Source: an uncultured Actinomycetota bacterium (GTDB taxonomy: Bacteria; Actinomycetota; Actinomycetes; JAFAQI01). From it: a stretch of 35,276 bases of DNA. Location of the stretch: assembly GCA_963770565.1 (NCBI GenBank), contig CAVYQE010000009.1, forward strand, positions 1 through 35,276, in the 5' to 3' direction. A program made the translations under genes and the position numbers. The notes under the pieces were generated by a model. The model was not told where the DNA came from. It saw only the letters and a program-made list of their open reading frames with translations, and ran no database searches. Below, piece after piece: positions 1 to 33,791 of this stretch (its first letter is position 1; every line of letters begins with the position of its first letter).

Positions 1-1492
1 CGACACCGCGGGCCGTCGGGTGAGCTTCGCGGAGTTCGCCGAGCTGGCCGAGGCCGCCGCGGCCGGCCTGCAGTTGCTCGGAATCGGGCCCGGGACCCAG
101 GTGACCTGGCAGCTGCCGACCCGGATCGACAGCGTGGTCGTGTCGATGGCGTTGGCGCGGCTCGGCGCGATCCAGAACCCGGTGCTGCACCTATACCGCG
201 AGCGCGAAGTTGCCGCGGTGCTGCGCCAGAGCCGGCCGGCGTTCTTCTTGGTGCCGGGAGTGTGGCGCGACCGTGACTTCGGCGCGATGGCTACCGCACT
301 TGGCGCGGATCTCGACCGGCCTCCGGCGGTGGTCGACCTCGGTGCCGGCCTTCCGCTCGCTGATCCCTCGACGCTGCCACCGCCGCCGGCGTCGGCGGAA
401 GAGGTCCGCTGGGTCTATTACACGTCGGGCACCACCTCCGAGCCCAAGGGCGTCCAGCACACCGACCGGACCCTGATGGCCGGCGGGCGCGGCCTGGCCG
501 CCGCCCTCGACATGTCCGCCGACGACCTGGGTTCGATCGCCTTCCCGTACTCGCATATCGCCGGGCCGGACTACCTGCTGATGATGCTGGCGGCCGGCTT
601 CGGCGCTGTGCTGCTCGAAACGTTCGTGCCGGCCGATGCGGTGGCGACGTTCCGGCAGCTGGGCGTGACGATGTGTGGCGGCAGTACGGCGTTCTATCAG
701 ATGTACCTGGCCGAGCAACGCAAGTCGCCAGGCGCCCCGATCGTCCCGTCGTTGCGGCTGATGTCGGGTGGTGGCGCGGCGAAACCGGCTGAGATCTTCT
801 ACGACGTCCAGCGCGAGATGGACGTGCGGGTCGTGCACGGCTACGGCATGACCGAGGTGCCGATGATCGCGATGGGATCGCCGCACGACACCGACGAGCA
901 GCTCGCCGAGACCGACGGTCGTCCGGTCCTCGGCGCGGAGATCCGCATCGTCGGCGTGGATGACGTCGTCGTCGCGTCCGGCGCCGAAGGCGAGGTGCGG
1001 GTGCGTGGCCCGGTGGTCTGTGTCGGCTACACCGACCCGGCGGCGAACGCGGCCGCCTTCGACGCCGAGGGCTGGTTCCGAACCGGCGATCTCGGCGTGC
1101 TCCGGCCGGACGGGCACCTGCGGCTGACCGGCCGGCTGAAGGACGTGATCATCCGTAAGGGCGAGAACATCTCGGCCCGCGAGCTCGAAGAGGTGTTGTT
1201 CTCGCATCCCAAGGTGGCCGAGGTCGCGGTCATCGGCCTGCCCGATGCCGAGCGCGGCGAGCTGGTCTGCGCGGTCGTCGAGTTGGCCGGGCCAGATGAT
1301 CCGCTCACGCTCGAGGAGATGACCGGGTGGTGTCGTGACGCCGGCCTGATGATGCAGAAGGTGCCGGAGCGACTCGAGATCGTCGACCGGCTGCCGCGCA
1401 ACGAGACCCTCAACAAGGTGTTGAAGTTCAAGCTGCGTGAGCAGTTCGCCTCGGGTGGCGAGGTTTCTGACGGGGCGTCAGGTCCTGCGTAG
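1..1492 (+). CDS. AMP-binding acyl-CoA ligase, cyclohexanecarboxylate-CoA ligase-like (5' end outside window)
   Basis: YTSGTTSEPKG P-loop, YGMTE, WFRTGDLG, GRLKDVIIRKGENIS, terminal KVLK; the frame is open back to the window start. Confidence 0.88.
   Translation, partial: DTAGRRVSFAEFAELAEAAAAGLQLLGIGPGTQVTWQLPTRIDSVVVSMALARLGAIQNPVLHLYREREVAAVLRQSRPAFFLVPGVWRDRDFGAMATALGADLDRPPAVVDLGAGLPLADPSTLPPPPASAEEVRWVYYTSGTTSEPKGVQHTDRTLMAGGRGLAAALDMSADDLGSIAFPYSHIAGPDYLLMMLAAGFGAVLLETFVPADAVATFRQLGVTMCGGSTAFYQMYLAEQRKSPGAPIVPSLRLMSGGGAAKPAEIFYDVQREMDVRVVHGYGMTEVPMIAMGSPHDTDEQLAETDGRPVLGAEIRIVGVDDVVVASGAEGEVRVRGPVVCVGYTDPAANAAAFDAEGWFRTGDLGVLRPDGHLRLTGRLKDVIIRKGENISARELEEVLFSHPKVAEVAVIGLPDAERGELVCAVVELAGPDDPLTLEEMTGWCRDAGLMMQKVPERLEIVDRLPRNETLNKVLKFKLREQFASGGEVSDGASGPA
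1465..1483. promoter_or_regulatory. Palindromic operator, copy 1 (TTCTGACGGGGCGTCAGGT)
   Basis: CTGACG-N3-CGTCAG; -10-like TAGACT at 1490-1495, ATG at 1504. Confidence 0.8.
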
Positions 1493-1503
1493 ACTCGCGA
1501 AAC

Positions 1504-2838
1504 ATGCGCGGCATCGTCGGGTGGGGCGTTCACCTGCCGCGCCACCGGCTCGACCGGGGCCAGATCGCGCCGTTGGTCGGTGTCGGTGGCGGCGCCGGGA
1601 CTCGGGTGGTCGCGTCGTACGACGAGGACACCACCACGATGGCGGTCGAGGCGGGCCGGATCGTCTTGCGGGACGCCGGCACCGCACCGGACGCGGTGTG
1701 GCTGGCCACCACGACGCCGGTATATCTCGATAAGACGAATGCGACCGCCGTGCATGCGGCGCTGCGGCTCGACCGCGAGGTGCCGGCGTACGACGCGGTC
1801 GGCTCGGTGCGCTCCACCTCGGGTGCGCTGCGCGCCGCCCTTGATGGATTCGGGTCGGCGTTGGTGGTGGCCAGCGACCTGCGGACCGGCCGGCCTGGCT
1901 CGGCCGAGGAATCCGCCGGCGCGGATGCCGCAGCGGCCGTCCTCGTCGGTGGTCCCGACGACGGGCCGGTCCTGGCCGAGCTACTCGGCCGCGGGTCGGC
2001 GACCGCGGAGTTCCTCGACCGGTGGCGGGAGCCCGGCGAGGTCGGGTCGCGGGTGTGGGAGGAGCGGTTCGGCGAAACCAAGTACGTCCCGCTCGGACTC
2101 GACGCGCTCGGCGCGGCGCTGCGGGCGGCGGCCGTCGAAATCGACGAAGTGGACACACTCGTCGTCGCCGGACTGCACGAGCGAGCGTGCGCCGCGGTCG
2201 CGAAGGGCTCCGGGGTGGCGGCCGACCGGATCGCGGATCGGTTGGCGGCATCGGTCGGCAATCCCGGCGCGGCGCAACCGTTGCTGCTGCTCGCACGGGC
2301 GCTTGAGCAGGCCGAGCCGGGCCGGGTGGTCGTGCTGTTGACCTTGTCGGACGGTGCGGACTGCTTCGTGTTCCGCACCACTGCGGCCATTGCCGACTAC
2401 CGGTCGTCGCGTCCGGTCGCCTCACAGGTGCTGGTGGGTGCACCGGTTGACTACGGCCGCTACTTGGCCTGGCGCGGGCTGCTTGCGGTCGAGCCGCCGC
2501 GGCGGCCGGAGCCGGCCCGGCCGTCGGCAAGTGCCGCCGGTCGCAGCGTCGACTGGAAGTTCGGCCTGGCCTCGCCGGAGGGCGTGCTCGCCGACCAGGA
2601 GGGGACCGTGACGACGTTTACTATCGATCGGCTCGCCTACTCGCCGAGCCCGCCGGTGGTGTTCGCGGTCGTCGACTTCGATGACGGCGAGCGGCTCCCG
2701 GTCGAGCTGACCGACGTGACGGCCACCGACGTCTCGGTCGGCATGCGGGTGGAGATGACGTTCCGCCGGTTGTTTACCGCCGATGGCATCGCGAACTACT
2801 TCTGGAAGGCCCGGCCGGTGCGGGGCGGTGACGACTGA
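1504..2838 (+). CDS. HMG-CoA-synthase-like N-terminal domain fused to a DUF35/ChsH2-type OB-fold
   Basis: DEDTTTMAVEA and GADAAAAVLV thiolase-fold motifs; C-terminal VVDFDDGERLPVELTD...VGMRVEMTFRR...YFWKARP. Confidence 0.8.
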   Translation: MRGIVGWGVHLPRHRLDRGQIAPLVGVGGGAGTRVVASYDEDTTTMAVEAGRIVLRDAGTAPDAVWLATTTPVYLDKTNATAVHAALRLDREVPAYDAVGSVRSTSGALRAALDGFGSALVVASDLRTGRPGSAEESAGADAAAAVLVGGPDDGPVLAELLGRGSATAEFLDRWREPGEVGSRVWEERFGETKYVPLGLDALGAALRAAAVEIDEVDTLVVAGLHERACAAVAKGSGVAADRIADRLAASVGNPGAAQPLLLLARALEQAEPGRVVVLLTLSDGADCFVFRTTAAIADYRSSRPVASQVLVGAPVDYGRYLAWRGLLAVEPPRRPEPARPSASAAGRSVDWKFGLASPEGVLADQEGTVTTFTIDRLAYSPSPPVVFAVVDFDDGERLPVELTDVTATDVSVGMRVEMTFRRLFTADGIANYFWKARPVRGGDD

Positions 2839-2839
2839 C

Positions 2840-4027
2840 GTGGCGTCGCATGGCATTCGGGACCGGGTCGCGATCGTCGGCATGGGCTGCACCCGGTTTG
2901 CCGAGCACTACGACCTCGGTACCGACGACCTCCTGCTGGCCGCGACCACCGAGGCGTTCGAGGCGGCCGGGGTCGGCAAGGAGGACGTCGACGCCTATTG
3001 GTTGAGCACCGCGCAGTCCGGGATGAGTGGCATCACCCTGGCCCGCCCGCTCAAGCTCGAGTCAAAGCCGGTGACCCGGGTCGAGAACTACTGCGCGTCG
3101 GGGTCCGAGGCGCTGCGGCAGGCGGCGTACGCGGTGGCGTCCGGGGCGTACGACCTGGCGATGGCGGTCGGGGTGGAGAAGGTCAAGGACTCCGGATACC
3201 AAGGGTTGAACGCGTTTCCGATCCCGTCGGATGGCACGCAGCGGACGTTGACCGCGGCCGCGATGTTCTCGATGGTCGGGCCGGCGTACGCGAGGCGCTA
3301 TGGCGTCGACCCGGCGGAGCTACGCACGGTGCTCGCGCGGATCGCGTCGAAGAACCATGCGAACGGTGCGAAGAATCCGAAGGCGCAGTTCCGCAAGGAG
3401 ATCTCGGTCGAGCGGTTGCTCGCCATGCCGCCGGTCGCGGGTGACCTGTCGGTGTTCGACTGCGCGGGGGTCGCCGACGGCGCGGCGGCAGCGATCGTGT
3501 GCCGGGTCGAGGACGCGGCGCGCTTCACCGACCTGCCGGTCGTGATCAAGGCGCTGTCGTTCGTCGCCGGCAACGGGAGCGGGCTCGCCGACCCGAGCTA
3601 TGACTACACCCACTTTCCCGAGGTGGCTGCGACCGCCGCCGATGCCTACGCGCAAGCCGGGATCACCAACCCGCGGGCCGAATTGGCGATGGCCGAGGTA
3701 CACGACTGCTTCACTCCCACCGAGCTGGTGTTGATGGAGGACCTCGGGTTCTCCGAGCGAGGTACGGCGTGGCGCGACGTGCTGGCCGGCTGCTTTGATC
3801 TCGACGGTGACCTGCCGGTCAACCCGGACGGCGGGCTGAAATCGTTCGGGCACCCGGTCGGGGCATCCGGGCTCCGGATGATGTACGAGGCCTGGTTGCA
3901 ACTGCGCGGTGAAGCGCCGTTGGAGCGCCGGATCTCGACCTACGGCAAGCGGTCACTGGCACTGACCCACAACCTTGGCGGCTATCCCGGCGAGATGGTC
4001 AGCTTCGTCGGCATCGTCGGGACCTGA
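2840..4027 (+). CDS. SCP2/lipid-transfer-type thiolase (acetyl-CoA acetyltransferase)
   Basis: VENYCASG (Cys), EVHDCF, GHPVGASG; GTG 1 nt after the upstream stop. Confidence 0.88.
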   Translation: MASHGIRDRVAIVGMGCTRFAEHYDLGTDDLLLAATTEAFEAAGVGKEDVDAYWLSTAQSGMSGITLARPLKLESKPVTRVENYCASGSEALRQAAYAVASGAYDLAMAVGVEKVKDSGYQGLNAFPIPSDGTQRTLTAAAMFSMVGPAYARRYGVDPAELRTVLARIASKNHANGAKNPKAQFRKEISVERLLAMPPVAGDLSVFDCAGVADGAAAAIVCRVEDAARFTDLPVVIKALSFVAGNGSGLADPSYDYTHFPEVAATAADAYAQAGITNPRAELAMAEVHDCFTPTELVLMEDLGFSERGTAWRDVLAGCFDLDGDLPVNPDGGLKSFGHPVGASGLRMMYEAWLQLRGEAPLERRISTYGKRSLALTHNLGGYPGEMVSFVGIVGT

Positions 4028-4041: not shown

Positions 4042-4851
4042 CTACCTCAGCCGCCAGTCGATCCGCTCGCCGGATTCGAACCGCCGTTGGCCTTCAGCGA
4101 GTGACTGCGCGGTCATGCCCATCGCGATGAACGAGTACGCCAGGTCGAGCGCCTGCCGGCGCCCGAGATCGACCGCCGCCCATACGGCGCGCAAGGTGGC
4201 CTGCACCGCGGCCGGCGGCGAGGCCGCGATCGTCGCAGCGAGTTGGCCGGCCGCCGCATGCAGGTCGGCGAGCGGAACAACCTCGGAGACCAGCCCGACC
4301 TGATACGCGCGCTGTGCTGAGATTCGCTCTGCGGCCCCGGTCAACTGCATCCGCAACAGCTCACCGAGTGGCATCCGGCCGACCATGAGCATCGACTCGT
4401 ACGACGCCGGCATCCCGTAGGTCACGTGCGGGTCGAAGAACGTCGCGCCCTCGGCGGCGATCAGGATGTCGGACTCGGCGAGGAGATACAGCGCGCCGCC
4501 GCAGGCGATCCCGTTGATCGCCGCGATCACCGGCTTCCACATCTCGTTGCGTTTCGGGCCGAGCTTCGTGCCGGGGTCGTCGTAGTCGATCGAGGAGGCG
4601 TCGAACCGGCCGCCGGTGGCGGTCGCGTCCGTGCCGATCTCCGACCGGTCGACGCCGGTGCAGAAGGCTCGATCACCGGCCCCGGTCAACACCGCGCAGC
4701 GAACGTTGTCGTCGTCGCGCATCGCCGCCCAGATCGACGAGATCTCCTCGAGCATCGTGTCGTTGAACGCGTTCATGACGTCCGGACGGTTGAGGGTGAC
4801 CCAGCCGATCCCGTCGGCGATCTCGTAGCGCACGGTCTCGAACTCGGTCAT
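4042..4851 (-). CDS. Crotonase/enoyl-CoA hydratase family protein
   Basis: VTLNRPDVMNA, AFCTGVD, KPVIAAINGIACGG; start at 4851 or 4863. Confidence 0.88.
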   Translation of the reverse strand: MTEFETVRYEIADGIGWVTLNRPDVMNAFNDTMLEEISSIWAAMRDDDNVRCAVLTGAGDRAFCTGVDRSEIGTDATATGGRFDASSIDYDDPGTKLGPKRNEMWKPVIAAINGIACGGALYLLAESDILIAAEGATFFDPHVTYGMPASYESMLMVGRMPLGELLRMQLTGAAERISAQRAYQVGLVSEVVPLADLHAAAGQLAATIAASPPAAVQATLRAVWAAVDLGRRQALDLAYSFIAMGMTAQSLAEGQRRFESGERIDWRLR

Positions 4852-4868
4852 CTGCGCGACCATACCGA

Positions 4869-4887
4869 ACCTGACGAGGCGTCAGGT
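4869..4887. promoter_or_regulatory. Palindromic operator, copy 2 (ACCTGACGAGGCGTCAGGT), divergent promoter
   Basis: Perfect 8-3-8 palindrome; -10 TACGCT at 4887-4892, ATG at 4900. Confidence 0.85.
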
Positions 4888-4899
4888 ACGCTCCGGCGC

Positions 4900-5817
4900 A
4901 TGTCGGGCTTCCTGCAGGACAAGGTGGTCGCGATCACCGGTGCAGGGCGCGGAATCGGTCGGGCGGTTGCACTTGCGTGCGCGGCCGAGGGCGCCAAGGT
5001 GCTCGTCAACGACTACGGCGTGGGGATCGATGGCGCCGACCCCACCAGTGAGGTCGCCGACTCAGTCGTTCGGGAGATCGAAGCGGCCGGTGGCGCGGCG
5101 ATTGCGATCGCCGACGACATCTCGACGATGGCGGCCGGCGAGCGGCTGGTCGCGACCGCGGTCGAGCAGTTCGGGCGGATCGACGGCGTCGTCACGGTCG
5201 CCGGCATCCTGCGTGAGCGGATGCTGTTCAACATGACCGAGGACGAGTGGGACGGGGTGATCGAGACCCATCTCAAGGGCACCTTCACGGTGTTCCGCGC
5301 CGCGGCTGCGGTGATGCGCAAGCAGGAGGGTGGCGGCTCGCTGGTCGCGTTCACCTCAGGGGTCGGGATGTGGGGCAGCGTGTCGCAGGCCAACTACGCG
5401 GCGGCCAAGGGCGGCGTGGTCGCGCTGGTCCGCAGTGCCGCGCTCGGGCTCGGCAAGTACGGCGTGACCGCGAATGCGATCGCCCCGGTCGCGAGCACCC
5501 GGATGCAGGCCAATGTGCCCGGCGGCACCGCGGAGACCGGAGATCCGGAAGATGTCGCGCCGATGGTCGTCTACCTGCTGTCGGACGCCGCGCGCGACGT
5601 CACCGGCCAGACCTACACGGTCGTGGGTGGCCGGGTCGCGTTGTGGGCCCAACCGCGGGAGATCCGCGAGATCGTCACGGACGGCCGCTGGACGCCCCAA
5701 GAGCTGGCGGCGCGACTGCCGGGCGAGGTGGGCACCGACCGGCTGCCGATGCTCGACTACATCGACATGATGAAGGCTCGCGCGGCACAAGCCGAGTCGG
5801 CATCGGCTTCATCGTGA
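4900..5817 (+). CDS. Short-chain dehydrogenase/reductase (3-hydroxyacyl-CoA dehydrogenase-like)
   Basis: TGAGRGIG, AGILRE, YAAAK; the true start is MSGFLQDK at 4900. Confidence 0.9.
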   Translation: MSGFLQDKVVAITGAGRGIGRAVALACAAEGAKVLVNDYGVGIDGADPTSEVADSVVREIEAAGGAAIAIADDISTMAAGERLVATAVEQFGRIDGVVTVAGILRERMLFNMTEDEWDGVIETHLKGTFTVFRAAAAVMRKQEGGGSLVAFTSGVGMWGSVSQANYAAAKGGVVALVRSAALGLGKYGVTANAIAPVASTRMQANVPGGTAETGDPEDVAPMVVYLLSDAARDVTGQTYTVVGGRVALWAQPREIREIVTDGRWTPQELAARLPGEVGTDRLPMLDYIDMMKARAAQAESASASS

Positions 5818-6584
5818 CGGCACCGCCGCCCTACCCGATCGGGCACGGCCTGCTGGCCGGCAAGACCGTGCTGGTGACGGCGGCGGCCGGCACCGGGATC
5901 GGATTCGCGACTGCCAAGCGGTGCGCCGAGGAGGGTGCAAGGGTCGCGATCAGCGACCGTCACGAGCGGCGGCTGGCCACCTCCGCCGAACGGCTCGCGG
6001 CGGTGCAGGGCACCGAGCCGATCGCGGTGCCCTGTGACGTCACGGTCGAGTCGGATGTGCAGCGAATGTTCGACGCGGTCGGCGAGTTCGACGTTCTGGT
6101 CAACAACGCCGGGCTCGGCGGCACCGCGCCCCTGGCTGACATGACCGATGAGCAGTGGCATGCGGTGGTCGACGTGACCCTCAATGGCACGATGCGCTGC
6201 ACCCGCGAAGGGCTGAAGCGGCTGAAGGCACGCGGCCGCGGTGGCGCGATCGTGAACAACGCCTCGGTGCTCGGCTGGCGGGCGCAAGCCGGGCAGGCCC
6301 ACTACGCGGCGGCGAAGGCCGGGGTGATGGCGCTGACCCGCGCCGCGGCCGTGGAAGCGGCCGAGTACGGCGTGCGAGTGAACGCCGTCGCGCCGTCGTT
6401 GGCAATGCACGAGAACCTGGCCAAGGTAACCAGCGACGAGCTGCTTGCAGAGCTGACGTCGCGCGAGGTGCTCGGTCGCGCGGCCGAGCCGTGGGAGATC
6501 GCCAACGTGATCGTCTTCCTGGCCAGCGACCTCGCGTCGTACCTGACCGGAGAGGTGATTTCGGCCAGCAGCCAGCACCCGTGA
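5814..6584 (+). CDS. ipdF: SDR, HIP-CoA reductase IpdF-like (Rv3559c-like)
   Basis: GHGLLAGKTVLVTAAAGTGIG...SDRHERRL, NNAG, YAAAK and C-terminal SSQHP, as recalled for Rv3559c; GTGA overlap with the upstream SDR. Confidence 0.8.
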   Translation: MTAPPPYPIGHGLLAGKTVLVTAAAGTGIGFATAKRCAEEGARVAISDRHERRLATSAERLAAVQGTEPIAVPCDVTVESDVQRMFDAVGEFDVLVNNAGLGGTAPLADMTDEQWHAVVDVTLNGTMRCTREGLKRLKARGRGGAIVNNASVLGWRAQAGQAHYAAAKAGVMALTRAAAVEAAEYGVRVNAVAPSLAMHENLAKVTSDELLAELTSREVLGRAAEPWEIANVIVFLASDLASYLTGEVISASSQHP

Positions 6585-6615: not shown

Positions 6616-6634
6616 ACCTGACGGGGCGTCAGAT
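6616..6634. promoter_or_regulatory. Palindromic operator, copy 3 (ACCTGACGGGGCGTCAGAT)
   Basis: -10 TACGCT at 6634-6639, GTG at 6647. Confidence 0.85.
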
Positions 6635-6646
6635 ACGCTGCGCGGC

Positions 6647-8113
6647 GTGGGTTTCGAGGGCTATCGGCTGTTCATCGATGGCGAGTGGGTCGAGCCGGCC
6701 GGTGGGCACTACGACGTGATCAACCCGGCGACCGAGGCCGTCGTGGGCCGGGCACCCGAGGCATCCCGACAGCAGGTGTACGACGCGGCCGCAGCGGCCC
6801 GGGCGGCGTTCCCGGCCTGGTCGGCGACCAAGCCCGAGCAGCGCGCCGAGATCCTGCGTCGGGCCGCGGACGCGATCGCTGCGCACGCGGACGAGTACGC
6901 CGCGATCGCGCAGGCCGAGACCGGCGCGACGTCGGCGACCGTGAAGATGCTGCAGGTCAACGTCGCGGTCGCGCGGTTCCGCCGCTATGCCAAGGGGGCG
7001 CTCGAGCCGGTCGAGATCCCGTTGCCGCCGACCGTGACCGAGAGCAGCCCGCTGTCCAAGGGTGGGCTGACCGGTGCACTCGTGATCCGGCAGCCGGTCG
7101 GCGTGGTGAGCTGCATCACGTCGTACAACAATCCGTGGGCCAACCCGGCCGGCAAGATCGCGCCCGCGCTGGCGATGGGCAACACCCTCGTGGTCAAGCC
7201 GGCGCCGCAGGACCCGCTGTCGGTGCTGAAGATGGCCGAGGCGCTCGAGGAGGCCGGGCTGCCGGCCGGCGTCGTCAACGTCATCTCCGGGCAGGCGGTC
7301 GGAGTCGGCGAGGCGAGCGTCGACTCGCCTGACGTCGACATGGTGAGCTTCACCGGCAGCACGCAGGTCGGGCGCGCGATCGGTGCGGTCGCCGGCGGAT
7401 CGATGAAGCGCGTGTTGATGGAGCTCGGCGGCAAGGGTGCGGCGATCCTGTTCGACGACGCGGATGTCAAGGCCGCGATCGGCGCGATCGGCACGACCTT
7501 CAGCTTCTACTCGGGTCAGATCTGCACGGCGCCAACCCGGGTCTACGTGCATCGCTCGGTGCTCGACCAGGTGGTCGAGGGCCTGGCGGCGTACGCGAAG
7601 GCGCTGAAGGTCGGAGATCCGACCGCGCCCGACACGGTGGTCGGTCCGGTGATCTCGGCGGCGCATCGCGACCGGGTCGAGAGCTACATCTCCGCCGGTC
7701 GCGAGGAGGGCGCGACGCTGGTCGCGGGCGGCGAGCGCCCTGACCTCGACCCGGGGTTCTATGTCGCGCCGACTCTGTTCGCCGACTGCCACAACGACAT
7801 GCGAATCGTGCGCGAGGAGATCTTCGGCCCGGTCGTGTCCGTGGTCGGTTTCGACACCGAGGACGAGGCGATCGCGCTGTCGAACGACTCGGATTACGGG
7901 CTGATCAACTACGTCTGGTCGGCCGACGCGGCTCGGGGCTATCGCGTTGCGCGGCAGCTGCGGGCCGGCACTGTCGACCTCAATACGGTGACGCAGCAGA
8001 TGGAAGCGCCGTTCGGCGGCTTCAAGCAAAGCGGAGTCGGGCGCGACCGCGGATCGTTCGGGCTGCATGCTTACAGCGAGCTGCAAGCGATCGTCTGGCC
8101 GAGTACGACTTGA
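6647..8113 (+). CDS. Aldehyde dehydrogenase
   Basis: FTGST, ELGGK, SGQICTA catalytic Cys, EEIFGP, PFGGFKQSG. Confidence 0.93.
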   Translation: MGFEGYRLFIDGEWVEPAGGHYDVINPATEAVVGRAPEASRQQVYDAAAAARAAFPAWSATKPEQRAEILRRAADAIAAHADEYAAIAQAETGATSATVKMLQVNVAVARFRRYAKGALEPVEIPLPPTVTESSPLSKGGLTGALVIRQPVGVVSCITSYNNPWANPAGKIAPALAMGNTLVVKPAPQDPLSVLKMAEALEEAGLPAGVVNVISGQAVGVGEASVDSPDVDMVSFTGSTQVGRAIGAVAGGSMKRVLMELGGKGAAILFDDADVKAAIGAIGTTFSFYSGQICTAPTRVYVHRSVLDQVVEGLAAYAKALKVGDPTAPDTVVGPVISAAHRDRVESYISAGREEGATLVAGGERPDLDPGFYVAPTLFADCHNDMRIVREEIFGPVVSVVGFDTEDEAIALSNDSDYGLINYVWSADAARGYRVARQLRAGTVDLNTVTQQMEAPFGGFKQSGVGRDRGSFGLHAYSELQAIVWPSTT

Positions 8114-8126
8114 GGCGGAACAGCTG

Positions 8127-9179
8127 ATGCGTGGAGTCGTGTACGACGGATCGGCCTATCAGGTCGTCGACGACCTGTCAGTTCGGGATCCCGGGCCGGG
8201 TGAGATCGCGGTGCGGATCGGCGCAGCCGGGCTGTGTCACAGCGACCTGTCGGTGATCAACGGGACGATTCCGTTCCCGACGCCGGTCGTGCTCGGCCAC
8301 GAGGGCGCAGGCGTGGTCGAGGCGGTCGGCGGATCGGTCACCACGGTGAAGGAGGGCGACCACGTGGTGCTCTCGACGTTGGGCAACTGTGGCGCCTGCC
8401 AGTACTGCGACGCCGGACGGCCGACAATGTGCCGGTCGACCTTCGGCGGCCGACCGCAGCCGTTCACCTGGCGCGGCGAGCCGGCGTACGCGTTCGCCAA
8501 CGCCTCGGTGTTCTCCGAGCGGACCGTCGTGAAGGCCAACCAGGCGGTGCCGATCCCGGCAGAGGTGCCGCTGGAGTCAGCGGCGCTTGTCGGGTGCGGC
8601 GTGGTGACCGGAATCGGCGCCGTGCTGCATCGGGCGCGAGTGCCTGAGGGTGCCAGCGTGCTCGTGATCGGGGTCGGCGGGATCGGCCTCAACGTGATCC
8701 AGGGTGCGGCGCTCGCCGGGGCGGGCCGGATCATCGCGGTCGACACCAACCCGCGCAAGCGCGAGGCAGCGTTGGCTTTCGGCGCGACTGACTTTCTCGA
8801 GAGCATCGACGCGGTCCGCGACCTCGTGTCGACCGGGGTGGACTACGCGTTCGAGTGCGTCGGCCACGTCGGGCTGATTCGGGCGGCGATCGACCTGCTC
8901 GACTGGGGTGGCACCGCGGTGATGCTCGGCGTGCCGGGCTTTACCGACGAGGCGTCGTTCAACGTCGCATCGATGTATCTCGACAAGTCGGTCCTGGGCT
9001 GCCGGTATGGCTCGTCGCAGCCGCAGCGCGACGTACGCCGCTATGTCGAGCTATATCAGCGTGGACGGCTCAAGCTCGACGAGCTGGTCTCGCGCCGTTA
9101 TCTGCTCGCGGACATCGCCGATGCCGTTCACGACATGGAAGCCGGGGAGATCGTCGCGCGCGGCGTTCTCACCTTCTGA
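8127..9179 (+). CDS. Zn-dependent alcohol dehydrogenase
   Basis: CHSD, GHEG, CGACQYC..C structural Zn site, GVGGIG. Confidence 0.93.
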   Translation: MRGVVYDGSAYQVVDDLSVRDPGPGEIAVRIGAAGLCHSDLSVINGTIPFPTPVVLGHEGAGVVEAVGGSVTTVKEGDHVVLSTLGNCGACQYCDAGRPTMCRSTFGGRPQPFTWRGEPAYAFANASVFSERTVVKANQAVPIPAEVPLESAALVGCGVVTGIGAVLHRARVPEGASVLVIGVGGIGLNVIQGAALAGAGRIIAVDTNPRKREAALAFGATDFLESIDAVRDLVSTGVDYAFECVGHVGLIRAAIDLLDWGGTAVMLGVPGFTDEASFNVASMYLDKSVLGCRYGSSQPQRDVRRYVELYQRGRLKLDELVSRRYLLADIADAVHDMEAGEIVARGVLTF

Positions 9180-9192
9180 CGAGGCCGGTCCG

Positions 9193-19687: not shown

Positions 19688-19689
19688 CA

Positions 19690-23611: not shown

Positions 23612-23624
23612 ACGGGACAGGATT

Positions 23625-24170: not shown

Positions 24171-24216
24171 AAGTCGGCTCTGCTGACCGACCAGCCGACT
24201 GAGACGGAGCGCCTTG

Positions 24217-25347
24217 ATGGAGTTCGGCCTGTTCATCCAGAACTACGTTCCCAACCGCCGGCGCGAGAGCGACCCGCAAGCCGAGCACCACTCGATCTTC
24301 GACGACATCGATGCAGTGGTGGCCGCCGACAAGGCCGGCTTCAAGTTCGTCTGGATCACCGAGCACCACTTCCTCGACGAGTACTCGCACCTGTCCGCGA
24401 ACGACGTCGTGGCCGGCTATCTGGCCGCCAAGACCGAGCGGATCCATATCGGTTCCGGGATCTTCAACCCGCTGCCGCAGGTCAACCACCCGGCCAAGGT
24501 CGCCGAGCGGGTCAACTACCTCGACCACCTGACCGAGGGCCGGTTCGAGTTCGGGACCGGCCGCGGCGCGGGCAGCCACGAGATTCTCGGCTTCCTGCAT
24601 CACGACGGGGTCACCGACACCAACGAGACGAAGGCGATCTGGGACGACGTCATCGGGGAGTTCCCGAAGATGTTCACCCAGGAAACCTACGAGGGCCACG
24701 AGGGCAAGTACTGGTCGCTGCCACCGCGCAAGATCCTGCCGCGGCCGTACGGCAAGGGCCATGCTCCGATGTGGTACGCCGCCGGCAACCCGCCGTCGTA
24801 CGAGATGGCCGGCCGGATGGGTCTCGGCGTCCTTGGCTTCTCCTTGGACCGCTGGGACAAGGTGGAGAAGCTCCGCGCGTCCTACAAGGACGGGATCGCG
24901 AACGCCGAGCCGGTCGGCGCGTTCGTCAACGACAACATCATGTCCTGCATCGCCGCCTATGTTGACGAGGACAGCCACAAGGCCAAGCAGTCCTACGTCA
25001 ACTCGCGGCCGAACTACCTGGTCTCCAATGTCTATCGCTACCACGACACCTTCCCGGCGCCGGACTGGATGCCGAAGTGGCCGGAGACCTTGGCCGAGCC
25101 CACGATGGAGAGCGCGGAGCTCGCGTCGCAGTTCGGCGGGATCGTGCTCGGTGACCCGGACGAGGCGCTCGCGCAGTGCAAGCGGTGGGAGGAGAGCGGG
25201 ATCGATCAGCTCGTCTTCGGGATCGGGCCGGCGCCGATCGAGGACACGATCACGACGATCGAGCTGCTCGGCAAACACGTGATCCCGAAGATCGACACCG
25301 ATCCGGTGGTGTCGACGACCCGCTACCGCGAGCGCGCGGCCGGCTGA
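24217..25347 (+). CDS. LLM-class (luciferase-like) flavin-dependent oxidoreductase
   Basis: MEFGLF, GFKFVWITEHHF, HPAKVAE..YLDHLTEGRFEFGTGRG; GGAG RBS. Confidence 0.9.
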   Translation: MEFGLFIQNYVPNRRRESDPQAEHHSIFDDIDAVVAADKAGFKFVWITEHHFLDEYSHLSANDVVAGYLAAKTERIHIGSGIFNPLPQVNHPAKVAERVNYLDHLTEGRFEFGTGRGAGSHEILGFLHHDGVTDTNETKAIWDDVIGEFPKMFTQETYEGHEGKYWSLPPRKILPRPYGKGHAPMWYAAGNPPSYEMAGRMGLGVLGFSLDRWDKVEKLRASYKDGIANAEPVGAFVNDNIMSCIAAYVDEDSHKAKQSYVNSRPNYLVSNVYRYHDTFPAPDWMPKWPETLAEPTMESAELASQFGGIVLGDPDEALAQCKRWEESGIDQLVFGIGPAPIEDTITTIELLGKHVIPKIDTDPVVSTTRYRERAAG

Positions 25348-28254: not shown

Positions 28255-29679
28255 ACGGACCGACTCAATCCGCTCGACGTGCGCTTCATCGACGCGGAAG
28301 ACCAGGATCGGCACACCTCGATGGCGATCGCGTCGATCGCGGTCTTCGAGGGCCCGCCGCCGACGTACGACGAGTTCCTCACCGCGCTCGAGGGCCGGCT
28401 GCCGCGCGTACCCCGCTATCGGCACAAGCTGCGCACGATGCCCTGGCGGATCGGTCCGCCGGTCTGGGTGGAGGACCCGGCGTTCGACCTTCGCTTCCAC
28501 GTTCGTCGTACCGCGGTACCGGCCCCGGGCGGTGACGCCGAGTTGCGTCAGCTGATGGCCCGGGTGATGGCCCAGCGGCTCGACCGGGACCGGCCGTTGT
28601 GGGAGTACTGGTTCGTCGAGGGCCTGTCCGAGGGCCGCTGGGCGCTGATCTCGAAGGTGCACCACTGCATGGTCGACGGCGTGTCCGGGACCGACCTGTA
28701 CCGGGTGATCTTCGACCTCACCCCCGAGCCTTCCGCACCGATCGCCGACGAGTGGGAGCCGGCCGGCGAGCCATCGTCGGGGCGGCTGTTGGCCGGCGCG
28801 GCACTCGACACCGTGCTGATCCCGGTCCGTGAAGCGCGGGCGCTCGGGTCGGCGCTGCGCCACCCCCGGCGGCTGGCCGGACAGACCATCGACACCGCCC
28901 GCGGGGTACGTCGGCTCGCGACCGCGCTGCCGCCGGCGAGCCCGTCGTCGTTGAGCGGGCCGGTCGGCCAGCAGCGCCGGTTCACCTGGCTGCGCGCTGA
29001 TCTCGACGACGTCAAGGCGGTCAAGCGCGAGTTCGGCGGCACTGTGAACGACGTCATCCTCGCGGCGATCACGAGTGGCTTCCGCGCGCTGCTGCTCGCG
29101 CGCGGCGAGGTGCCGGATCCGAGCATGGTGCCGTCGCTGGTGCCGGTGTCGGTCCGTGCGCCGGGCGAGGAGGGCATCTACGAGAATCGGGTGTCAGCCT
29201 TGATCGCCCACCTCCCGGTCGACGTGGCCGATCCGGTCGAGCGGCTCGCCGCAATCCATCAGCAGCTCGACGAGCTGAAGCAGAGCAACGAAGCCGACGC
29301 CGGCGAGACGTTGGTGGCGCTCGCCCGGTTCGTGCCGTACTCGATCTCGTCGTTCGCGACCCGGCTGATGATGCGGCTGCCGCAGCGGGAGATCGTCACG
29401 GTCACCACGAATGTGCCGGGCCCGCGCCAGCCGCTCTACGGGTTAGGCCGCCAGCTGATCGCGATGATCCCCTACGTCCCGATCGCCACCACGCTGCGGA
29501 CCGGGATCGCGATCATCAGCTACTGCCAGGACATCACGATCGGGATCACCGGCGACTACGACACCACAGGTGATCTCGAGGTGCTGGCCCGCGGAATCGA
29601 GACCGGTATCGCGGAGCTGGTTGCAGCAGCCGGCCAGGACGCGACGGCTGCAGTCACCGGCTCCCACCGAGCCGGCTAA
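28255..29679 (+). CDS. Wax ester synthase/DGAT family O-acyltransferase
   Basis: DRLNPLD, LDRDRPLWE, HHCMVDG catalytic motif, GTVNDV, TNVPGP; start ambiguous (ACG 28255 or GTG 28210). Confidence 0.9.
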   Translation, partial: TDRLNPLDVRFIDAEDQDRHTSMAIASIAVFEGPPPTYDEFLTALEGRLPRVPRYRHKLRTMPWRIGPPVWVEDPAFDLRFHVRRTAVPAPGGDAELRQLMARVMAQRLDRDRPLWEYWFVEGLSEGRWALISKVHHCMVDGVSGTDLYRVIFDLTPEPSAPIADEWEPAGEPSSGRLLAGAALDTVLIPVREARALGSALRHPRRLAGQTIDTARGVRRLATALPPASPSSLSGPVGQQRRFTWLRADLDDVKAVKREFGGTVNDVILAAITSGFRALLLARGEVPDPSMVPSLVPVSVRAPGEEGIYENRVSALIAHLPVDVADPVERLAAIHQQLDELKQSNEADAGETLVALARFVPYSISSFATRLMMRLPQREIVTVTTNVPGPRQPLYGLGRQLIAMIPYVPIATTLRTGIAIISYCQDITIGITGDYDTTGDLEVLARGIETGIAELVAAAGQDATAAVTGSHRAG

Positions 29680-30280
29680 GGTAGTCGTCGCTGTCCCGCG
29701 GCGCGATGAACAAACCCTCGGCCTCGGACAGCAGCACGCCGTCGAGCGTGCAGCTGCCGCGAATCCACCGCTTCCGGCCCTCGACCCGGTCGATCCAGCC
29801 GCGGAGGGCGAGCTCCCGGTTGAGCGGTGTCGGTGCGCGGTAGTCGACCTTGAGGTACGCCGTATAGCCCGGCGCGAGCTGCACGAACCCGAGCAGCTCG
29901 TCGAAGACCGCCGCGATCCAGCCACCGTGGCAGTGCCCGGGCGGCCCTTCGTACGCCGGCCCGAACGTGATCCTCCCCACAATGTGCTGCTCGCCGTCCG
30001 GGCCGGTGACCACCTCCATCGTGAGCGGCGGTGCGATCGGGTTGTTCGGGCCGCTGACCGGGCTGAACCGGACGAAGTCGCGTGGCAGCAGGCCGGCCTC
30101 GCTGACCTCCCACGACCGGGCGCGTTCCGGCAGGGCGTCGAGCTGCTCGGCGAAAGCGTTGGCCGCGTCGGCGGCGCGGGCGAGCTGGTCCGCGCGTGGT
30201 CGAACCACTGCGAGCCTGGCGATGATCCGGCGCAGCGCCTCCGCCAGCGCTCGCGACGCCTGCCGGGTGTCCTCGTCCAC
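29654..30280 (-). CDS. PaaI/hotdog-fold thioesterase
   Basis: SPVSGPNNPIAPP, YEGPPGHCHGGWIAAVFDE, VDYRAPTPL. Confidence 0.88.
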   Translation of the reverse strand: MDEDTRQASRALAEALRRIIARLAVVRPRADQLARAADAANAFAEQLDALPERARSWEVSEAGLLPRDFVRFSPVSGPNNPIAPPLTMEVVTGPDGEQHIVGRITFGPAYEGPPGHCHGGWIAAVFDELLGFVQLAPGYTAYLKVDYRAPTPLNRELALRGWIDRVEGRKRWIRGSCTLDGVLLSEAEGLFIAPRDSDDYLSRLGGSR

Positions 30281-30314
30281 GTGGTGCAGCTCCGTTTCTC
30301 CCGCCGGTCGGCGG

Positions 30315-30345
30315 TCAGTCCTTGAAGTGGTTCAGTCCTTGAAGT
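30315..30345. repeat. 14-bp direct repeat duplicating a gene 3' end
   Basis: TCAGTCCTTGAAGT at 30315-30328 and 30332-30345. Confidence 0.8.
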
Positions 30346-31138
30346 CCGGTGCCCGCTTCTCGCGGCGGGCGCTGACCGCTTCCTCGAAGTTCCGGGTGGT
30401 CAGCCGGACGTAGAGCTGCGCCAGCCCTTCGTGGTCCATGTGCGCGGTCAGGCTCGACGCGTCGAGGCTCGACGCCAGCATCCGCTTGGTCAATTCGACG
30501 CCGGTCCGGCTGAACCCGATGATCCGCTCGGCGATCTCGAAGCACCGCTCGAGCAACGCCTCAGGTGGCACGACCTGCGAGACGAGGCCGATCCGCTCGG
30601 CCTCGACCGCGTCGACGTCGCGTCCGGTCAGCATGATCTCGGCCGCCCGGGCCGAGCCGATCGCGCGGGGGAGCAGGTAGCTGATGCCGAGCTCGCTCGC
30701 GGTCAGGCCGTTGGTGATGCCGGCCGCGCGAAAGTACGCCGGCTGCGCTGCCACCCGCAGGTCGCACGCCAGGGCCAGGCAGAACCCGCCCCCGATCGCC
30801 GGGCCGTTGACCGCGGCGATCACCGGTTGGTGCATGCCGCGCACGGTGGTGACCACCTTCTCCAGCAGCTCCATCGAACGCAGCGCGACGGTGGCCAGGG
30901 TGAGCCCGTCGATATCGGGCACCCGGCCCGGGTCCTCGAGGTCCGCCCCCGAGCAGAAGGCCCGGCCGGCTCCGGTCAGGACAACCACGCGGACGTCGTT
31001 GTCGCGGCTGACCGACTCGAGTGCCTCGCGCAGCGGGACCATCACGTCGAACGCCATCGAGTTCATCCGGTCGGGCCGGTTGAGGGTCACCGACGCGACC
31101 TGCGGTTGCGGCCGTTCGATCTGTACGAACTCGCTCAC
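30332..31138 (-). CDS. Enoyl-CoA hydratase family protein (EchA12-like)
   Basis: TLNRPDRMNSMAFD, AFCSGAD, FRAAGITNGLTASELG; GTGA overlap. Confidence 0.88.
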   Translation of the reverse strand: MSEFVQIERPQPQVASVTLNRPDRMNSMAFDVMVPLREALESVSRDNDVRVVVLTGAGRAFCSGADLEDPGRVPDIDGLTLATVALRSMELLEKVVTTVRGMHQPVIAAVNGPAIGGGFCLALACDLRVAAQPAYFRAAGITNGLTASELGISYLLPRAIGSARAAEIMLTGRDVDAVEAERIGLVSQVVPPEALLERCFEIAERIIGFSRTGVELTKRMLASSLDASSLTAHMDHEGLAQLYVRLTTRNFEEAVSARREKRAPDFKD

Positions 31139-31602
31139 GGCGCACCGAGGTCGGTGTCGGCGAGGCCGGTGATGGTGTAGCTGCGGATCTGCGTGCGGGC
31201 GCTGAACCGCCAGCCGTCGGGTGTTCGCGCGAATTCGTCGTCGTACCAGAGCCCGATCAGCCAGACTGACCTCTGGTTGCCGGGCCTGGTCGACACCATC
31301 GGGTTGCTGCAGGAGGTGCGCGCGGTGGCGGTGTCGCCGTGCACCTCGATGTATGGCAGGCCCATCATGTGCTGGCTGTGTGCGAACAACGGCAGCGACG
31401 CGGCGAGGAACGCCTTGATCTCCGCGAGACCGCCGACCGGTCCGTTGAACGTGGTGAAGTCGATCCGCGCGTCCGCGGTGAACATCGGGTCGAGCGCATC
31501 GAAGTCGCGGTTGTCGATCACGACCGCGTAGCGGGCGATGAGGTCCTGGATCGCGAGCCGGTCCGCGACCTCGGCCGCGCCGTAGCCGGTGGTGCTGGTC
31601 AT
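31135..31602 (-). CDS. NTF2-like/SnoaL-like protein
   Basis: DRLAIQDLIARYA..D, QHMMG, GDTA, WYDDEF.RT.DGWRF. Confidence 0.88.
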   Translation of the reverse strand: MTSTTGYGAAEVADRLAIQDLIARYAVVIDNRDFDALDPMFTADARIDFTTFNGPVGGLAEIKAFLAASLPLFAHSQHMMGLPYIEVHGDTATARTSCSNPMVSTRPGNQRSVWLIGLWYDDEFARTPDGWRFSARTQIRSYTITGLADTDLGAP

Positions 31603-33226
31603 GAGGCCGGGTGATGCGCCTCGGCGGTGGCGCGCGCCCACGCATAGTCGGCCTTGCCCGCCGGGGTGCGTTCGACCGTGTCGACCAGGACGACTTCGCG
31701 CGGCAGCTTGTAGCTCGCGAGCGCGGTGGCGCCGTGCGCCCGCAGGGAGTCGAGGTCCGGCTCGGCGCCGGGTGCGGCGGCGACGACGGCGACGATCCGT
31801 TGGCCCCAGCGCTCGTCCGGCAGGCCCACGACCACCACGTCGGCAACCTCCGGGCAGGTCATCAGGACCGTCTCGACCTCCTCCGGATAGACCTTCTCGC
31901 CGCCGGTGTTGATCGAGGTCGAGCCGCGGCCAAGCAGCACGACCGTTCCGTCGGCGTCGACGGTCGCATGGTCGCCCGGCATCACCCAGCGCTCGCCGTC
32001 GACCTCGAGGAAGGTCGCTGCGGTCTTCGACTCGTCGTTGTAGTAGCCGAGCGGCACGTGGCCCTTTCGGGCCAGCCGGCCGACCTCACCAGAACCGGGG
32101 GTGACCGGCCGGCCGGCATCGTCCAACACCTGGGTCTGCGCATTTACGGTGAACCGCGGCGCGGTTGATGCGTCACCGGCTGCGTGCAGCTTGCTGCCGA
32201 GGATGCCGGTCTCCGATGACCCGAAGCCGTCGACGACCATGACCGACGGCAGTTGCTCGGTGAGCTTTGCCTTTGCGGCACTCGACAGGACCGCGCCGCC
32301 CGAGCCGATCACGATCAGCGACGACACGTCGTACGGCGATCCGGCTGCGGCTGCCTGCTCGATCGATTCGGCGAGTGGTACTGCCATCGCGTCGCCGACG
32401 ATGGTGAGGATGTTGACCCCTTCGGCCGCCACCAGCGACCAGACCGCGTCGGCGTCGAACCGGCCGGGTGGCGGGAAGACGATCCGGCCACCGGCGAACA
32501 TTGAGTGGAACACGCCCCATTGCGCGCTGACATGCATCAGCGGCGGGGTGGTGAGGATGGTGCCGCCGACCTCGGGCATCCGCTCGAGGAGCTCCTCGGG
32601 CGCGGCGATGAAGTTGCCGGACTGGAAGAGATCGCCACCGCCCATGGCGGCGAAGAAGATGTCCTCCTGCCGCCACACGACGCCCTTCGGCATGCCGGTG
32701 GTGCCGCCGGTGTAGGCGACGTAGCGGTCATCACCTGATCGGTCGGCACCGTCGGGTCGGGCGGTCGGTGCGCCCGCGAGCGCGGCGTCGTAGTCGATCG
32801 AGCCGGCCGGCAGTTCTTCGTCGCTGCCGTCATCGACCGAGATCAGCGTCCGGACCGGGTGGGGGCGGCCACCGCGGCGGCGACCCGCGACCCGAACTGC
32901 CGGTGGTGGATGACGACGACTAGGTCGGCGTCGTCGTAGAGGTGGCGCAGCTCGGCCGCGACGTACCGGAAGTTGACGTTGATCGGCACCGCGGAGAGCT
33001 TGAACGCGGCCAGCATGCCCTCGAGGTATTCCGACCCGTTGAGCAGCTGCAAGCCGACGTGATCACCGGCGCCGACCCCGCGCTCGGCGAGGACATGGGC
33101 CAGCGCGTTGGCCCGGCGATCGAGCTCGGCGTAGCTCAGCCGCCGCTCCGGGGAGACGATGACCTCGCGCTCCGGGGCAGCATCGACGACGCGTTCGAAC
33201 AGGTCGGCGAGATTGAACCCGGGCAA
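31599..33226 (-). pseudogene. Acyl-CoA synthetase (FadD19-like), one frameshift near 32860 (likely sequencing error)
   Basis: FNLADLFE...INVNFRY in one frame; YTGGTTGMPKGVVW, LGRGSTSINTGGEKVYPEEVE, GKADY in another; the switch is at a G run. Confidence 0.8.
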
Positions 33227-33239
33227 CGCGTCGGGACTC

Positions 33240-33756
33240 GGACGGGCAGCCGGGACGGGCTTGCCGCCCGCGCCGAGCACGACGAGCTGGCAGAAGGTGA
33301 TCTTCGAGACCTTCCAGACGCCGCGTCGAGGACCGCGGTGCCGCGGCCTTCGGCAGCAGCTTGGTCTTCCCGCCGAACAGCGTGTAGACCACTGCCGCAC
33401 TCATCCCGTCGGAGCTGAAGGTGAACTTCCGGACGATGGCCGACTCCGAGGCCTTCTCCTTCTTCGCGATCTTCGCCGCGAAGCTGACCGCCGGGCCGAG
33501 GCTCGCGCCGTCCTGCAGCAGGCTGACCGACACGGAATGCGGAGTGCTCGACTTGAAGAAGGTCGCCCAGTTCTTCTTCAGCTGCTTGGTCGCGGCCGCG
33601 ATGCCGGCGGCGCCGGTAGCGACGGGCCCGCGCGGCGGACGTGGGGGTGCTCGTGGTCGGCTGGTGGTCGGCGCTGCCGCCGCCGCTGCTGCTCGAGCTG
33701 CACCCGGCGAGCACGAAGAGCACGGACAGGACGAGCGCAACCGGAAGCTTCCGCAT
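33240..33756 (-). pseudogene. Putative lipoprotein (MTB12/CFP2-like), multiply frameshifted
   Basis: MRK plus hydrophobic stretch and LAGC lipobox; NWATFF...LLQDG and WKVSKITFCQL lie in different frames; 3' end approximate. Confidence 0.55.
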
Positions 33757-33772
33757 GACCCGACCGTACCGT

Positions 33773-33791
33773 ATCTGACGGGTCGTCACAT
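33773..33791. promoter_or_regulatory. Palindromic operator, copy 6 (ATCTGACGGGTCGTCACAT), divergent promoter
   Basis: One core mismatch; -10 TACGGT on - at 33768-33763 (ATG 33756); CATAAT on + at 33789-33794. Confidence 0.8.

Follow-up and report, generated by a model that had tools for sequence, protein, structure and literature searches.

A conserved 19-bp palindrome, the probable operator of a CoA-ester catabolic regulon in uncultured Actinomycetota

The genome of an uncultured member of the Actinomycetota (assembly GCA_963770565.1) carries, on contig CAVYQE010000009.1, six copies of a 19-bp palindrome distributed over a cluster of genes that appear to act on esters of coenzyme A (CoA). 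The stretch of DNA analyzed, called the window below, comprises positions 1 to 35,276 of this contig and has a G+C content of 70%. The motif is a real, non-random and promoter-associated palindrome. Because distant uncultured actinobacteria retain it at corresponding promoters, we read it with some confidence as the operator of a predicted dimeric helix-turn-helix repressor, probably of the TetR family, that would act inside core promoters. A previous reading of the window, made from the sequence alone (hereafter the sequence-only reading), had proposed that these copies define a regulon placed under a repressor other than KstR2 and covering genes for the degradation of the steroid C/D-ring intermediate HIP.

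Copies of the probable operator in the window

All six palindromes listed by the sequence-only reading were found where it had placed them. Their core, CTGACG-N3-CGTCAG, is exact at 1467, 4871, 6618 and 17471, with one mismatch at 33775 and two at 11092.

1465..1483: operator copy 1, TTCTGACGGGGCGTCAGGT; exact core; matrix score 27.5; 20 nt 5' of ATG 1504
4869..4887: operator copy 2, ACCTGACGAGGCGTCAGGT; exact core; matrix score 28.2; between a divergent enoyl-CoA hydratase (-) and an operon of two short-chain dehydrogenases/reductases, SDRs (+)
6616..6634: operator copy 3, ACCTGACGGGGCGTCAGAT; exact core; matrix score 31.2; 5' of the aldehyde dehydrogenase-alcohol dehydrogenase-isochorismatase operon
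11090..11108: operator copy 4, degenerate, TTCTGATGGGTCGTCATGT; two core mismatches; matrix score 15.2; between an alpha/beta hydrolase (-) and an acyl-CoA dehydrogenase (+)
17469..17487: operator copy 5, TTCTGACGACCCGTCAGAT; exact core; matrix score 30.3; between a FadA6-like thiolase (-) and a seven-gene operon (+)
33773..33791: operator copy 6, ATCTGACGGGTCGTCACAT; one core mismatch; matrix score 31.2; between a lipoprotein-like gene (-) and an aldehyde dehydrogenase (+)

Four copies had been described as lying between divergent genes, which holds for 4869, 11090, 17469 and 33773; the neighbors of copy 3 (6616) are co-directional, and copy 1 lies over the final codons of the AMP-ligase frame to its left, whose stop is at 1492. 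The immediate left neighbor of copy 6 is the frameshifted small lipoprotein-like gene and not an acyl-CoA ligase.

With at most one mismatch, the core has five matches in the window as compared to a mean of 0.40 (largest 3) in dinucleotide shuffles, and none of 100 shuffles reached five. When two mismatches are allowed, significance is lost (nine matches versus a shuffle mean of 4.44, nine being reached by 4 of the 100 shuffles) and copy 11090 is therefore without support from counting alone. This degenerate copy is nevertheless supported, because it is the sole further window position scoring above 12 (15.2) with a 23-nt weight matrix, and because close relatives have strong sites beside the orthologous acyl-CoA dehydrogenase, which starts with GTGGACCTG. 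The matrix was built from 70 sites with at most one core mismatch, taken from the window and from the related loci described below, and it scores above 12 at exactly six window positions, which are the six reported copies.

The two bases on either side of the core played no part in the selection of sites. The two positions before the core are nonetheless A in 72% and T in 69% of the sites, despite a background of 70% G+C; the unit is therefore the full 19-mer, with the consensus A-T-C-T-G-A-C-G-N3-C-G-T-C-A-G-A-T, and not the core alone.

Conservation in related loci

Related loci were obtained by searching a one-genome-per-species GTDB set with the HMG-CoA-synthase-like/DUF35 protein of the window, which gave 80 loci (cited below as L001 and so on), the source genome not being among them. 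The best ones belong to metagenome-assembled genomes of Mycobacteriales and Frankiales-type bacteria (70-79% identity) and the rest mostly to Acidimicrobiia (48-62%). The core with at most one mismatch is present in 47 of the 80 loci and a site scoring at least 20 in 40 of them, and in 27 loci such a site lies within 300 nt upstream of the orthologous HMG-CoA-synthase-like/DUF35 gene. The motif, which the sequence-only reading had suggested looking for in orthologous clusters of other actinobacteria, is thus kept in both Mycobacteriales/Frankiales-type genomes and Acidimicrobiia. Sites scoring at least 20 number 56 in 1.44 Mb of related loci, versus 0-1 in each of 10 block shuffles, the shuffles being counted with a two-dinucleotide speed filter. 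When 14 orthologous upstream regions from both classes were aligned, the half-sites, a TA..T hexamer and the start codon were invariant and the remainder diverged.

The five closest loci (L001-L004 and L077) have two to five sites each, placed at the gene junctions of the window itself: hydratase/SDR-SDR, 5' of an aldehyde dehydrogenase, and dehydrogenase/SDR. The arrangement of operator 2 recurs at L001:15255 and L002:15755, that of operator 3 at L001:19625 and L077:18939, 5' of aldehyde dehydrogenases, and the counterpart of operator 4 is a strong site at the promoter of the orthologous dehydrogenase in all five loci.

Beyond these genomes, no close match to 25 kb of window DNA was found in the plasmid collection, and regions of Streptomyces with a similar thiolase harbor no site. 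A palindrome of Nocardia farcinica adjoining a similar thiolase, CTGACGTATAGTCAG (L084 13222-13240), was considered and judged unrelated, its divergent regulator being different. It resembles the half-sites of the motif but has a matrix score of only 11.6, and the small divergent regulator gene, its translation read by eye, looks like an HxlR-type or winged-helix protein.

A separate observation concerns the center of the palindrome. Four sites located by amidohydrolase_2 or isochorismatase genes in three distant genomes (L006:1993, L014:20769, L044:16031 and L044:17498) have the same variant center, CTGACACACCGTCAG or its complement, which suggests that the inner bases are conserved at these promoters.

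Promoter geometry and proposed mechanism

Hexamers resembling a -10 box accompany four of the copies, as listed here.

1490..1495 (+): TAGACT, 6 nt 3' of operator 1 and 8 nt 5' of ATG 1504
4887..4892 (+): TACGCT, its first T being the last base of operator 2; ATG 4900 after 7 nt
6634..6639 (+): TACGCT, one T in common with operator 3; GTG 6647 after 7 nt
17487..17492 (+): TAAGGT, one T in common with operator 5; ATG 17501 after 8 nt

The last T of the palindrome had been proposed to be the first T of the -10 box, and this is indeed the case at 4869 and 6616 (TACGCT in both) and at 17469 (TAAGGT). As to the wider statement that all copies lie at promoters, the spacing of hexamers and starts fits it, copy 1465 overlaps the 3' end of the upstream AMP-ligase, and a strict sigma-70 scan came back empty. 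Promoters were called here from TANNNT hexamers and their spacing rather than from mapped transcript starts. Among 96 site orientations with the start of a coding-like open reading frame (ORF) within 120 nt, this start lies at most 40 nt away in 75, and a TANNNT hexamer is found 5-9 nt before the start codon in 40. Such a hexamer 5-9 nt before the start codon is the arrangement expected of leaderless actinobacterial genes. The distance from the last base of the palindrome to the start of the hexamer is 0-1 nt in 13 of these 40 orientations (window sites 4869, 6616 and 17469 among them), 5-10 nt in 24 (among them window site 1465 and, on its minus side, 17469) and different in three. Several Acidimicrobiia have one site at a distance of about 19 nt from both divergent starts, that of a family III CoA-transferase and that of the DUF35 gene. 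As for the position of sites relative to genes, 49 of 61 are outside a continuous coding-like frame, versus 775 of 2000 random positions; this criterion replaced a looser one, an ORF start within 120 nt, which is satisfied by 450 of 600 random positions.

The spacing of site, hexamer and start codon suggests leaderless promoters and the geometry of a repressor. The palindrome would be part of the core promoter, sharing its last T with the -10 hexamer or ending 5-10 nt before it, and transcripts starting after the hexamer, 5-9 nt 5' of the start codon, would be leaderless. A bound dimer would cover the region from -10 to -35 and block RNA polymerase, and at divergent pairs one dimer could silence both directions. 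In this manner the six copies may control about 27 of the roughly 33 genes of the window, nearly all of which act on CoA thioesters, aldehydes or alcohols. Analogy with KstR2, FadR and DesT makes an acyl-CoA intermediate of the pathway the probable inducer. Operators of the TetR type are palindromes of about 15-20 bp, and the present one has 19 bp and conserved half-sites.

Candidate regulator

Coding frames of the window were picked by their third-position G+C and named with Pfam and NCBIfam, and 33 ORFs were scanned. None contains a DNA-binding domain (TetR_N or other) according to Pfam, and a TetR helix-turn-helix profile built from the related loci has no match in the window. No KstR2 box being present either, these results support the earlier proposal of a repressor that is distinct from KstR2 and encoded outside the window.

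In the related loci, TetR-family proteins are the only DNA-binding proteins that Pfam recognizes among the ORFs adjacent to sites. One of them, L006:2050-2694 in a Jatrophihabitantaceae genome, combines TetR_N and TetR_C_38 (scores of 124.3 and 32.2, above the gathering scores), starts 38 nt after the site at L006:1993 and is divergent from an amidohydrolase. Its orthologue in a Microthrixaceae genome, L044:19757-20440 (54% identity; scores of 146.3 and 28.9, again above the gathering scores), is the third gene of a tight same-strand run (isochorismatase, AMP-ligase, TetR) that follows the site at L044:17498. The suggested search for a regulator gene with the same site upstream thus gave a TetR_C_38 gene in two loci and none in the window or in the five closest loci. 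Twelve other TetR-like ORFs of the 80 loci have no site upstream.

Environmental Actinomycetota have many members of the family of this candidate: of 8000 proteins scored, 4250 reach E ≤ 1e-10, and the top 120 all have TetR_C_38. The protein atlas agrees with this. In the plasmid collection, tblastn with the candidate retrieved only Streptomyces proteins, of at most 46% identity and in unrelated contexts, and no solved structure falls within the family. The predicted model of the candidate (pLDDT 91.8) has EthR as its closest fold (TM 0.76-0.87), followed by the acyl-CoA-binding FadR proteins and DesT, at sequence identities of only 16-24%. An uncharacterized EthR-like TetR of this TetR_N and TetR_C_38 type is our best candidate for the regulator, a tentative assignment that we hold less firmly than the operator itself. 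Near the orthologous operon of L076, an Actinomycetota genome, a 461-aa protein (L076:7136-8518) has two TetR_N domains, as in duplicated TetR proteins of the Mce3R type, with no site nearby.

Several points weigh against a TetR-controlled operator as outlined above. The window has no regulator gene, and neither have the five closest relatives within 10 kb. Only two of the 80 loci have the TetR_C_38 candidate close to a site, and each of these two also holds a second, unrelated TetR beside or after a site (L006:2810-3634 and L044:16102-16854, which are not orthologues of each other), so the assignment of TetR_C_38 is not unique. Plasmids of cultured Rhodococcus and Mycobacterium avium carry homologous operons (41-47% identity) without the motif, which therefore marks particular lineages and not a gene family. 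At the promoters, 56 of the 96 site orientations have no TANNNT at leaderless distance, start codons were picked by rule (the first start codon of a coding-like ORF), and the strict sigma-70 consensus scan returned no promoter in either half of the window; such a scan is uninformative for DNA this rich in G+C. Lastly, the matrix was trained on the same sites that were later counted with it, which leaves the shuffles and the unselected flanks as the independent evidence.

The scarcity of the candidate and the two additional TetR proteins would also be expected if the palindrome were the operator of a repressor from another helix-turn-helix family (MarR, GntR, IclR, XRE or similar) or from another TetR lineage encoded elsewhere, the TetR_C_38 gene then being merely a member of the regulon. 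A spacing of half-sites by about one helical turn indeed suits many dimeric families. However, no regulator other than TetR proteins is beside any site among the scanned site-adjacent ORFs, the two GntR genes of L006 (13524-15081) have no site, and TetR_C_38 orthologues are found downstream of a site in two classes of Actinomycetota. This alternative deserves to be taken seriously but seems unlikely.

Comparison with known systems

A close parallel to the proposed operator is the KstR2 regulon of Mycobacterium and Rhodococcus, where a TetR repressor uses, as is proposed here, a palindrome in short divergent intergenic regions of CoA-ester catabolic genes, one site serving both directions, and where a FadD3-family ligase, a FadA6-like thiolase, a hydratase, SDRs and acyl-CoA dehydrogenases are likewise found. 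The two differ in several respects. The KstR2 box, AnCAAGnnCTTGnT, has 14 bp and an even center (PMC3068626), whereas the window operator has 19 bp and an odd center. As the sequence-only reading had noted, the KstR2 box is missing here: the window has no full box and no CAAG-N2-CTTG core. No kstR2 gene was found among the 33 ORFs with Pfam and the TetR profile, no IpdAB-type or IpdC-type gene was found among the window ORFs, the candidate TetR matches KstR2 weakly (E about 0.005) and the core of the present regulon, unlike that of KstR2, is conserved in Acidimicrobiia. The box of KstR has the consensus TnnAACnnGTTnnA, which has no match in the window.

A second parallel is KstR3 of Mycolicibacterium neoaurum, the TetR repressor of the HBC operon comprising atf1 (aldolase), chsH4 (DUF35-type), chsE6 (dehydrogenase) and kstR3 (PMC10398937). 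In both cases a TetR protein, predicted in ours, stands over a thiolase-like/DUF35 pair with an acyl-CoA dehydrogenase apart from the main steroid cluster, but the regulator is part of the operon there and outside the window here. The accessible text of that report gives no KstR3 operator. BkaR (Rv2506) is an autoregulated TetR protein with a palindromic operator over CoA-ester catabolic genes; its motif, GTTA(N)T(N4)A(N)TAAC, of which each promoter has two copies, differs from that of the window (PMC3920632). So do the Lcin1 motif of Nocardioides, TCCCGGT[C/G]ACCGGGA, the operator of Mce3R, described as non-palindromic, and TAC-N6-GTA, a new motif from mycobacterial comparative genomics (PMC3388012).

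The predicted fold of the candidate relates it to FadR of Thermus and Bacillus, DesT and EthR, and the regulated genes act on acyl-CoA, whereas sequence identity is only 16-24%. The operators of FadR, DesT and EthR are not known to resemble the palindrome of the window. By analogy, the regulon may work like the KstR2, BkaR or FadR systems, through a different motif.

Plasmid pDK3 of Rhodococcus sp. DK17 has the same OB-fold/thiolase pair (46.7% identity) and also a palindrome with a 3-nt center, located before the operon and by a TetR gene. That palindrome is AGATTAG-N3-CTAATCT and the adjoining TetR is long (about 440 aa), unlike our candidate system. Its copies (L085 13671-13687 and 19958-19972) are in the CaiB/TetR intergenic region and before the OB-fold/thiolase operon, and they are probably the operator of this 440-aa TetR.

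No matching motif was found in the literature covered, that is by half-site strings in full texts and by readable motifs, and we consequently present the operator and regulon as previously undescribed. The motif could still be a real one that has been described for a named regulator in image logos, subscription journals, RegPrecise or CollecTF, which were outside the comparison; Table 2 of PMC4482099, for instance, gives the motifs of 30 mycobacterial TetR regulators as images. The half-site strings, though, retrieved no relevant full text but only primers and unrelated papers, the readable motifs of KstR2, BkaR, Lcin1 and Mce3R are all different, and the motif is absent from the replicons of cultured strains that were scanned, which together make an earlier description improbable.

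Alternatives to a repressor site

Operators of the MerR type lie between -35 and -10 and end at the hexamer. In 13 of the 96 orientations a -10-like hexamer begins on the last base of the palindrome or 1 nt past it, and the palindrome could on this ground be the site of a MerR-like or other activator that remodels the promoter. Such an activator is very improbable, as the offset to the hexamer varies (0-1 nt in 13 cases, 5-10 nt in 24) and would thereby break the phasing of MerR, there is no conserved -35 and the bases just upstream of the palindrome (matrix positions -3 and -2) are not conserved, and no MerR gene is present among the ORFs scanned in the window and loci.

A G+C-rich stem of 6-8 bp with a 3-nt loop is possible and copy 1465 is at the 3' end of a gene, as for an RNA hairpin (terminator, attenuator or processing site), or the copies might be a dispersed repeat, but we give these readings the least credit of all since no T-run follows the palindromes, the terminator scan of the window lists none of the six and no Rfam family matches them, the four copies located between divergent starts would remain untranscribed with transcripts that begin past the hexamers, conservation extends to the A/T flanks beyond the stem but not to the freely varying loop bases, and the flanks of the six copies are otherwise unrelated (11 of 13 invariant columns fall inside the palindrome when copies with 40-nt flanks are aligned).

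Content of the putative regulon and implications

The operator of a predicted repressor thus remains the favored reading, and the genes behind sites across the loci indicate what it may govern. They encode the HMG-CoA-synthase-like/DUF35-thiolase pair, family III CoA-transferases, acyl-CoA dehydrogenases, SDRs and enoyl-CoA hydratases, as well as aldehyde dehydrogenases, isochorismatase-family proteins and amidohydrolase_2 proteins, and occasionally an F420H2-dependent quinone reductase, a nitroreductase or a fatty-acid hydroxylase. Judged by these gene families, the putative regulon is one of CoA-ester catabolism. The sequence-only reading had pointed to a rewired or extended catabolic pathway. 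A rewired KstR2 regulon in this sense is not supported: because the palindrome is kept at the HMG-CoA-synthase-like/DUF35-thiolase operon in two classes of Actinomycetota, the data point to an old regulon with a core of its own, namely thiolase/DUF35, family III CoA-transferase, acyl-CoA dehydrogenases, SDRs, hydratases and aldehyde dehydrogenases. This conserved core differs from the HIP set, whose look-alikes in the window are additions made in its lineage.

The HIP or steroid-ring label itself is only partly justified. Four window proteins exceed NCBIfam equivalog cut-offs, those of the FadD3 family (744.6 versus 657), PRK07801 (703 versus 591), PRK07831 (408 versus 336) and PRK05864 (453 versus 337), the last three models representing what we take to be FadA6, IpdF and EchA20 of the mycobacterial HIP set. 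On the other side, the IpdE2 model scores 146 for a cut-off of 450, and no IpdAB-type or IpdC-type gene was named among the scanned window ORFs, so a complete HIP pathway, with fadD3, ipdAB, ipdC, ipdF, echA20, fadE30-33 and fadA6, is not shown.

Taken as a whole, a broader picture can be proposed, which we consider possible but less likely than not. An old regulon of Actinomycetes (uncultured Mycobacteriales/Frankiales-type) and Acidimicrobiia would be run by an uncharacterized EthR-like TetR_C_38 protein via ATCTGACG-N3-CGTCAGAT and would govern a CoA-dependent catabolic pathway, so far undescribed, that centers on an archaeal-style thiolase/HMG-CoA-synthase-like/DUF35 unit. The lineage of the window would have brought paralogues of mycobacterial KstR2-controlled genes under this control, and the substrate would be a cyclic or branched lipid that is related to HIP but distinct from it.

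If the operator reading is true, a precise 19-bp operator with a short list of target operons offers a handle on a catabolic pathway of abundant, mostly uncultured soil and water actinobacteria, including Microthrix-type Acidimicrobiia, which carry the motif. The content of the regulon would tell which enzymes cooperate (the thiolase/DUF35 unit, family III CoA-transferase, heteromeric-type acyl-CoA dehydrogenases, SDRs and aldehyde dehydrogenases), and the operator could be used as bait for the regulator and its inducer. Genes annotated for the steroid C/D-ring (HIP) could then stand under another regulator, which would call for caution in deducing steroid degradation in metagenomes from HIP annotations alone.

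Other genes of the window

The genes of the window are listed below from left to right.

2..1492: AMP-dependent ligase, cut at the window edge
1504..4027 (+): putatively regulated operon of an HMG-CoA-synthase-like protein fused to a DUF35 OB-fold domain (1504-2838; Pfam) and an SCP-x-type thiolase (PRK06157, 586.9 versus a cut-off of 403)
4042..4863 (-): putatively regulated enoyl-CoA hydratase (Pfam)
4900..6584 (+): putatively regulated SDR pair, PRK07791-like and then PRK07831 (408 versus 336)
6647..9804 (+): putatively regulated aldehyde dehydrogenase, Zn-alcohol dehydrogenase and isochorismatase-family hydrolase (Pfam, NCBIfam)
9809..11066 (-): glyoxalase-fold protein and alpha/beta hydrolase, divergent from operator 4
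11139..12298 (+): acyl-CoA dehydrogenase, with its start at GTG 11139, 6 nt after TACGGT
16281..17450 (-): FadA6-like thiolase (PRK07801, 703 versus 591), whose best solved relative is the steroid thiolase FadA5
17501..25347 (+): putative seven-gene operon, proposed from same-strand genes with short gaps
Right of the HMG-CoA-reductase-like and ligase genes (25350-28095) and left of the 29654..33756 run: wax-ester synthase
29654..33756 (-): putative operon of a lipoprotein-like gene, acyl-CoA synthetase PRK07798, hydratase PRK05864 (453 versus 337) and a thioesterase-like protein, the first two frameshifted
33804..35264 (+): second aldehyde dehydrogenase, its frame disturbed mid-gene and at the C-terminal end

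The start of the acyl-CoA dehydrogenase at 11139 was chosen by analogy with the orthologues beginning GTGGACCTG. In relatives, the gene of a partner subunit follows this dehydrogenase and is missing in the window. Positions 12300-16200 form an insert-like stretch of lower G+C (0.56-0.62) that encodes a DUF222 protein and two small proteins that look secreted, besides unnamed ORFs.

The putative seven-gene operon encodes two acyl-CoA dehydrogenases, a family III CoA-transferase, the FadD3-family ligase (744.6 versus 657), a flavin reductase-IclR_C fusion, DoxX and a luciferase-like monooxygenase. The fusion (22313-23611, +) is a single frame in which an HsaB-like flavin reductase domain (aa 55-199) precedes an effector-binding domain of the IclR_C type (aa 219-328). 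Neither Pfam nor NCBIfam finds a helix-turn-helix in this unusual protein, which may be a reductase gated by a ligand.

A class I-type HMG-CoA-reductase-like gene and an AMP-ligase lie inside the catabolic cluster at 25350-28095 (-); the former reaches 409.8 bits in Pfam and 340.6 with TIGR00533, below the cut-off of 441.8, and the matrix scan found no operator copy before the pair. Towards the right end, the acyl-CoA synthetase PRK07798 (31602-33400) is divided over two frames, and the lipoprotein-like gene (33063-33789) has its signal peptide and body in separate frames. These disturbed frames, and those of the second aldehyde dehydrogenase (33804-35264), are due either to assembly errors or to decay.

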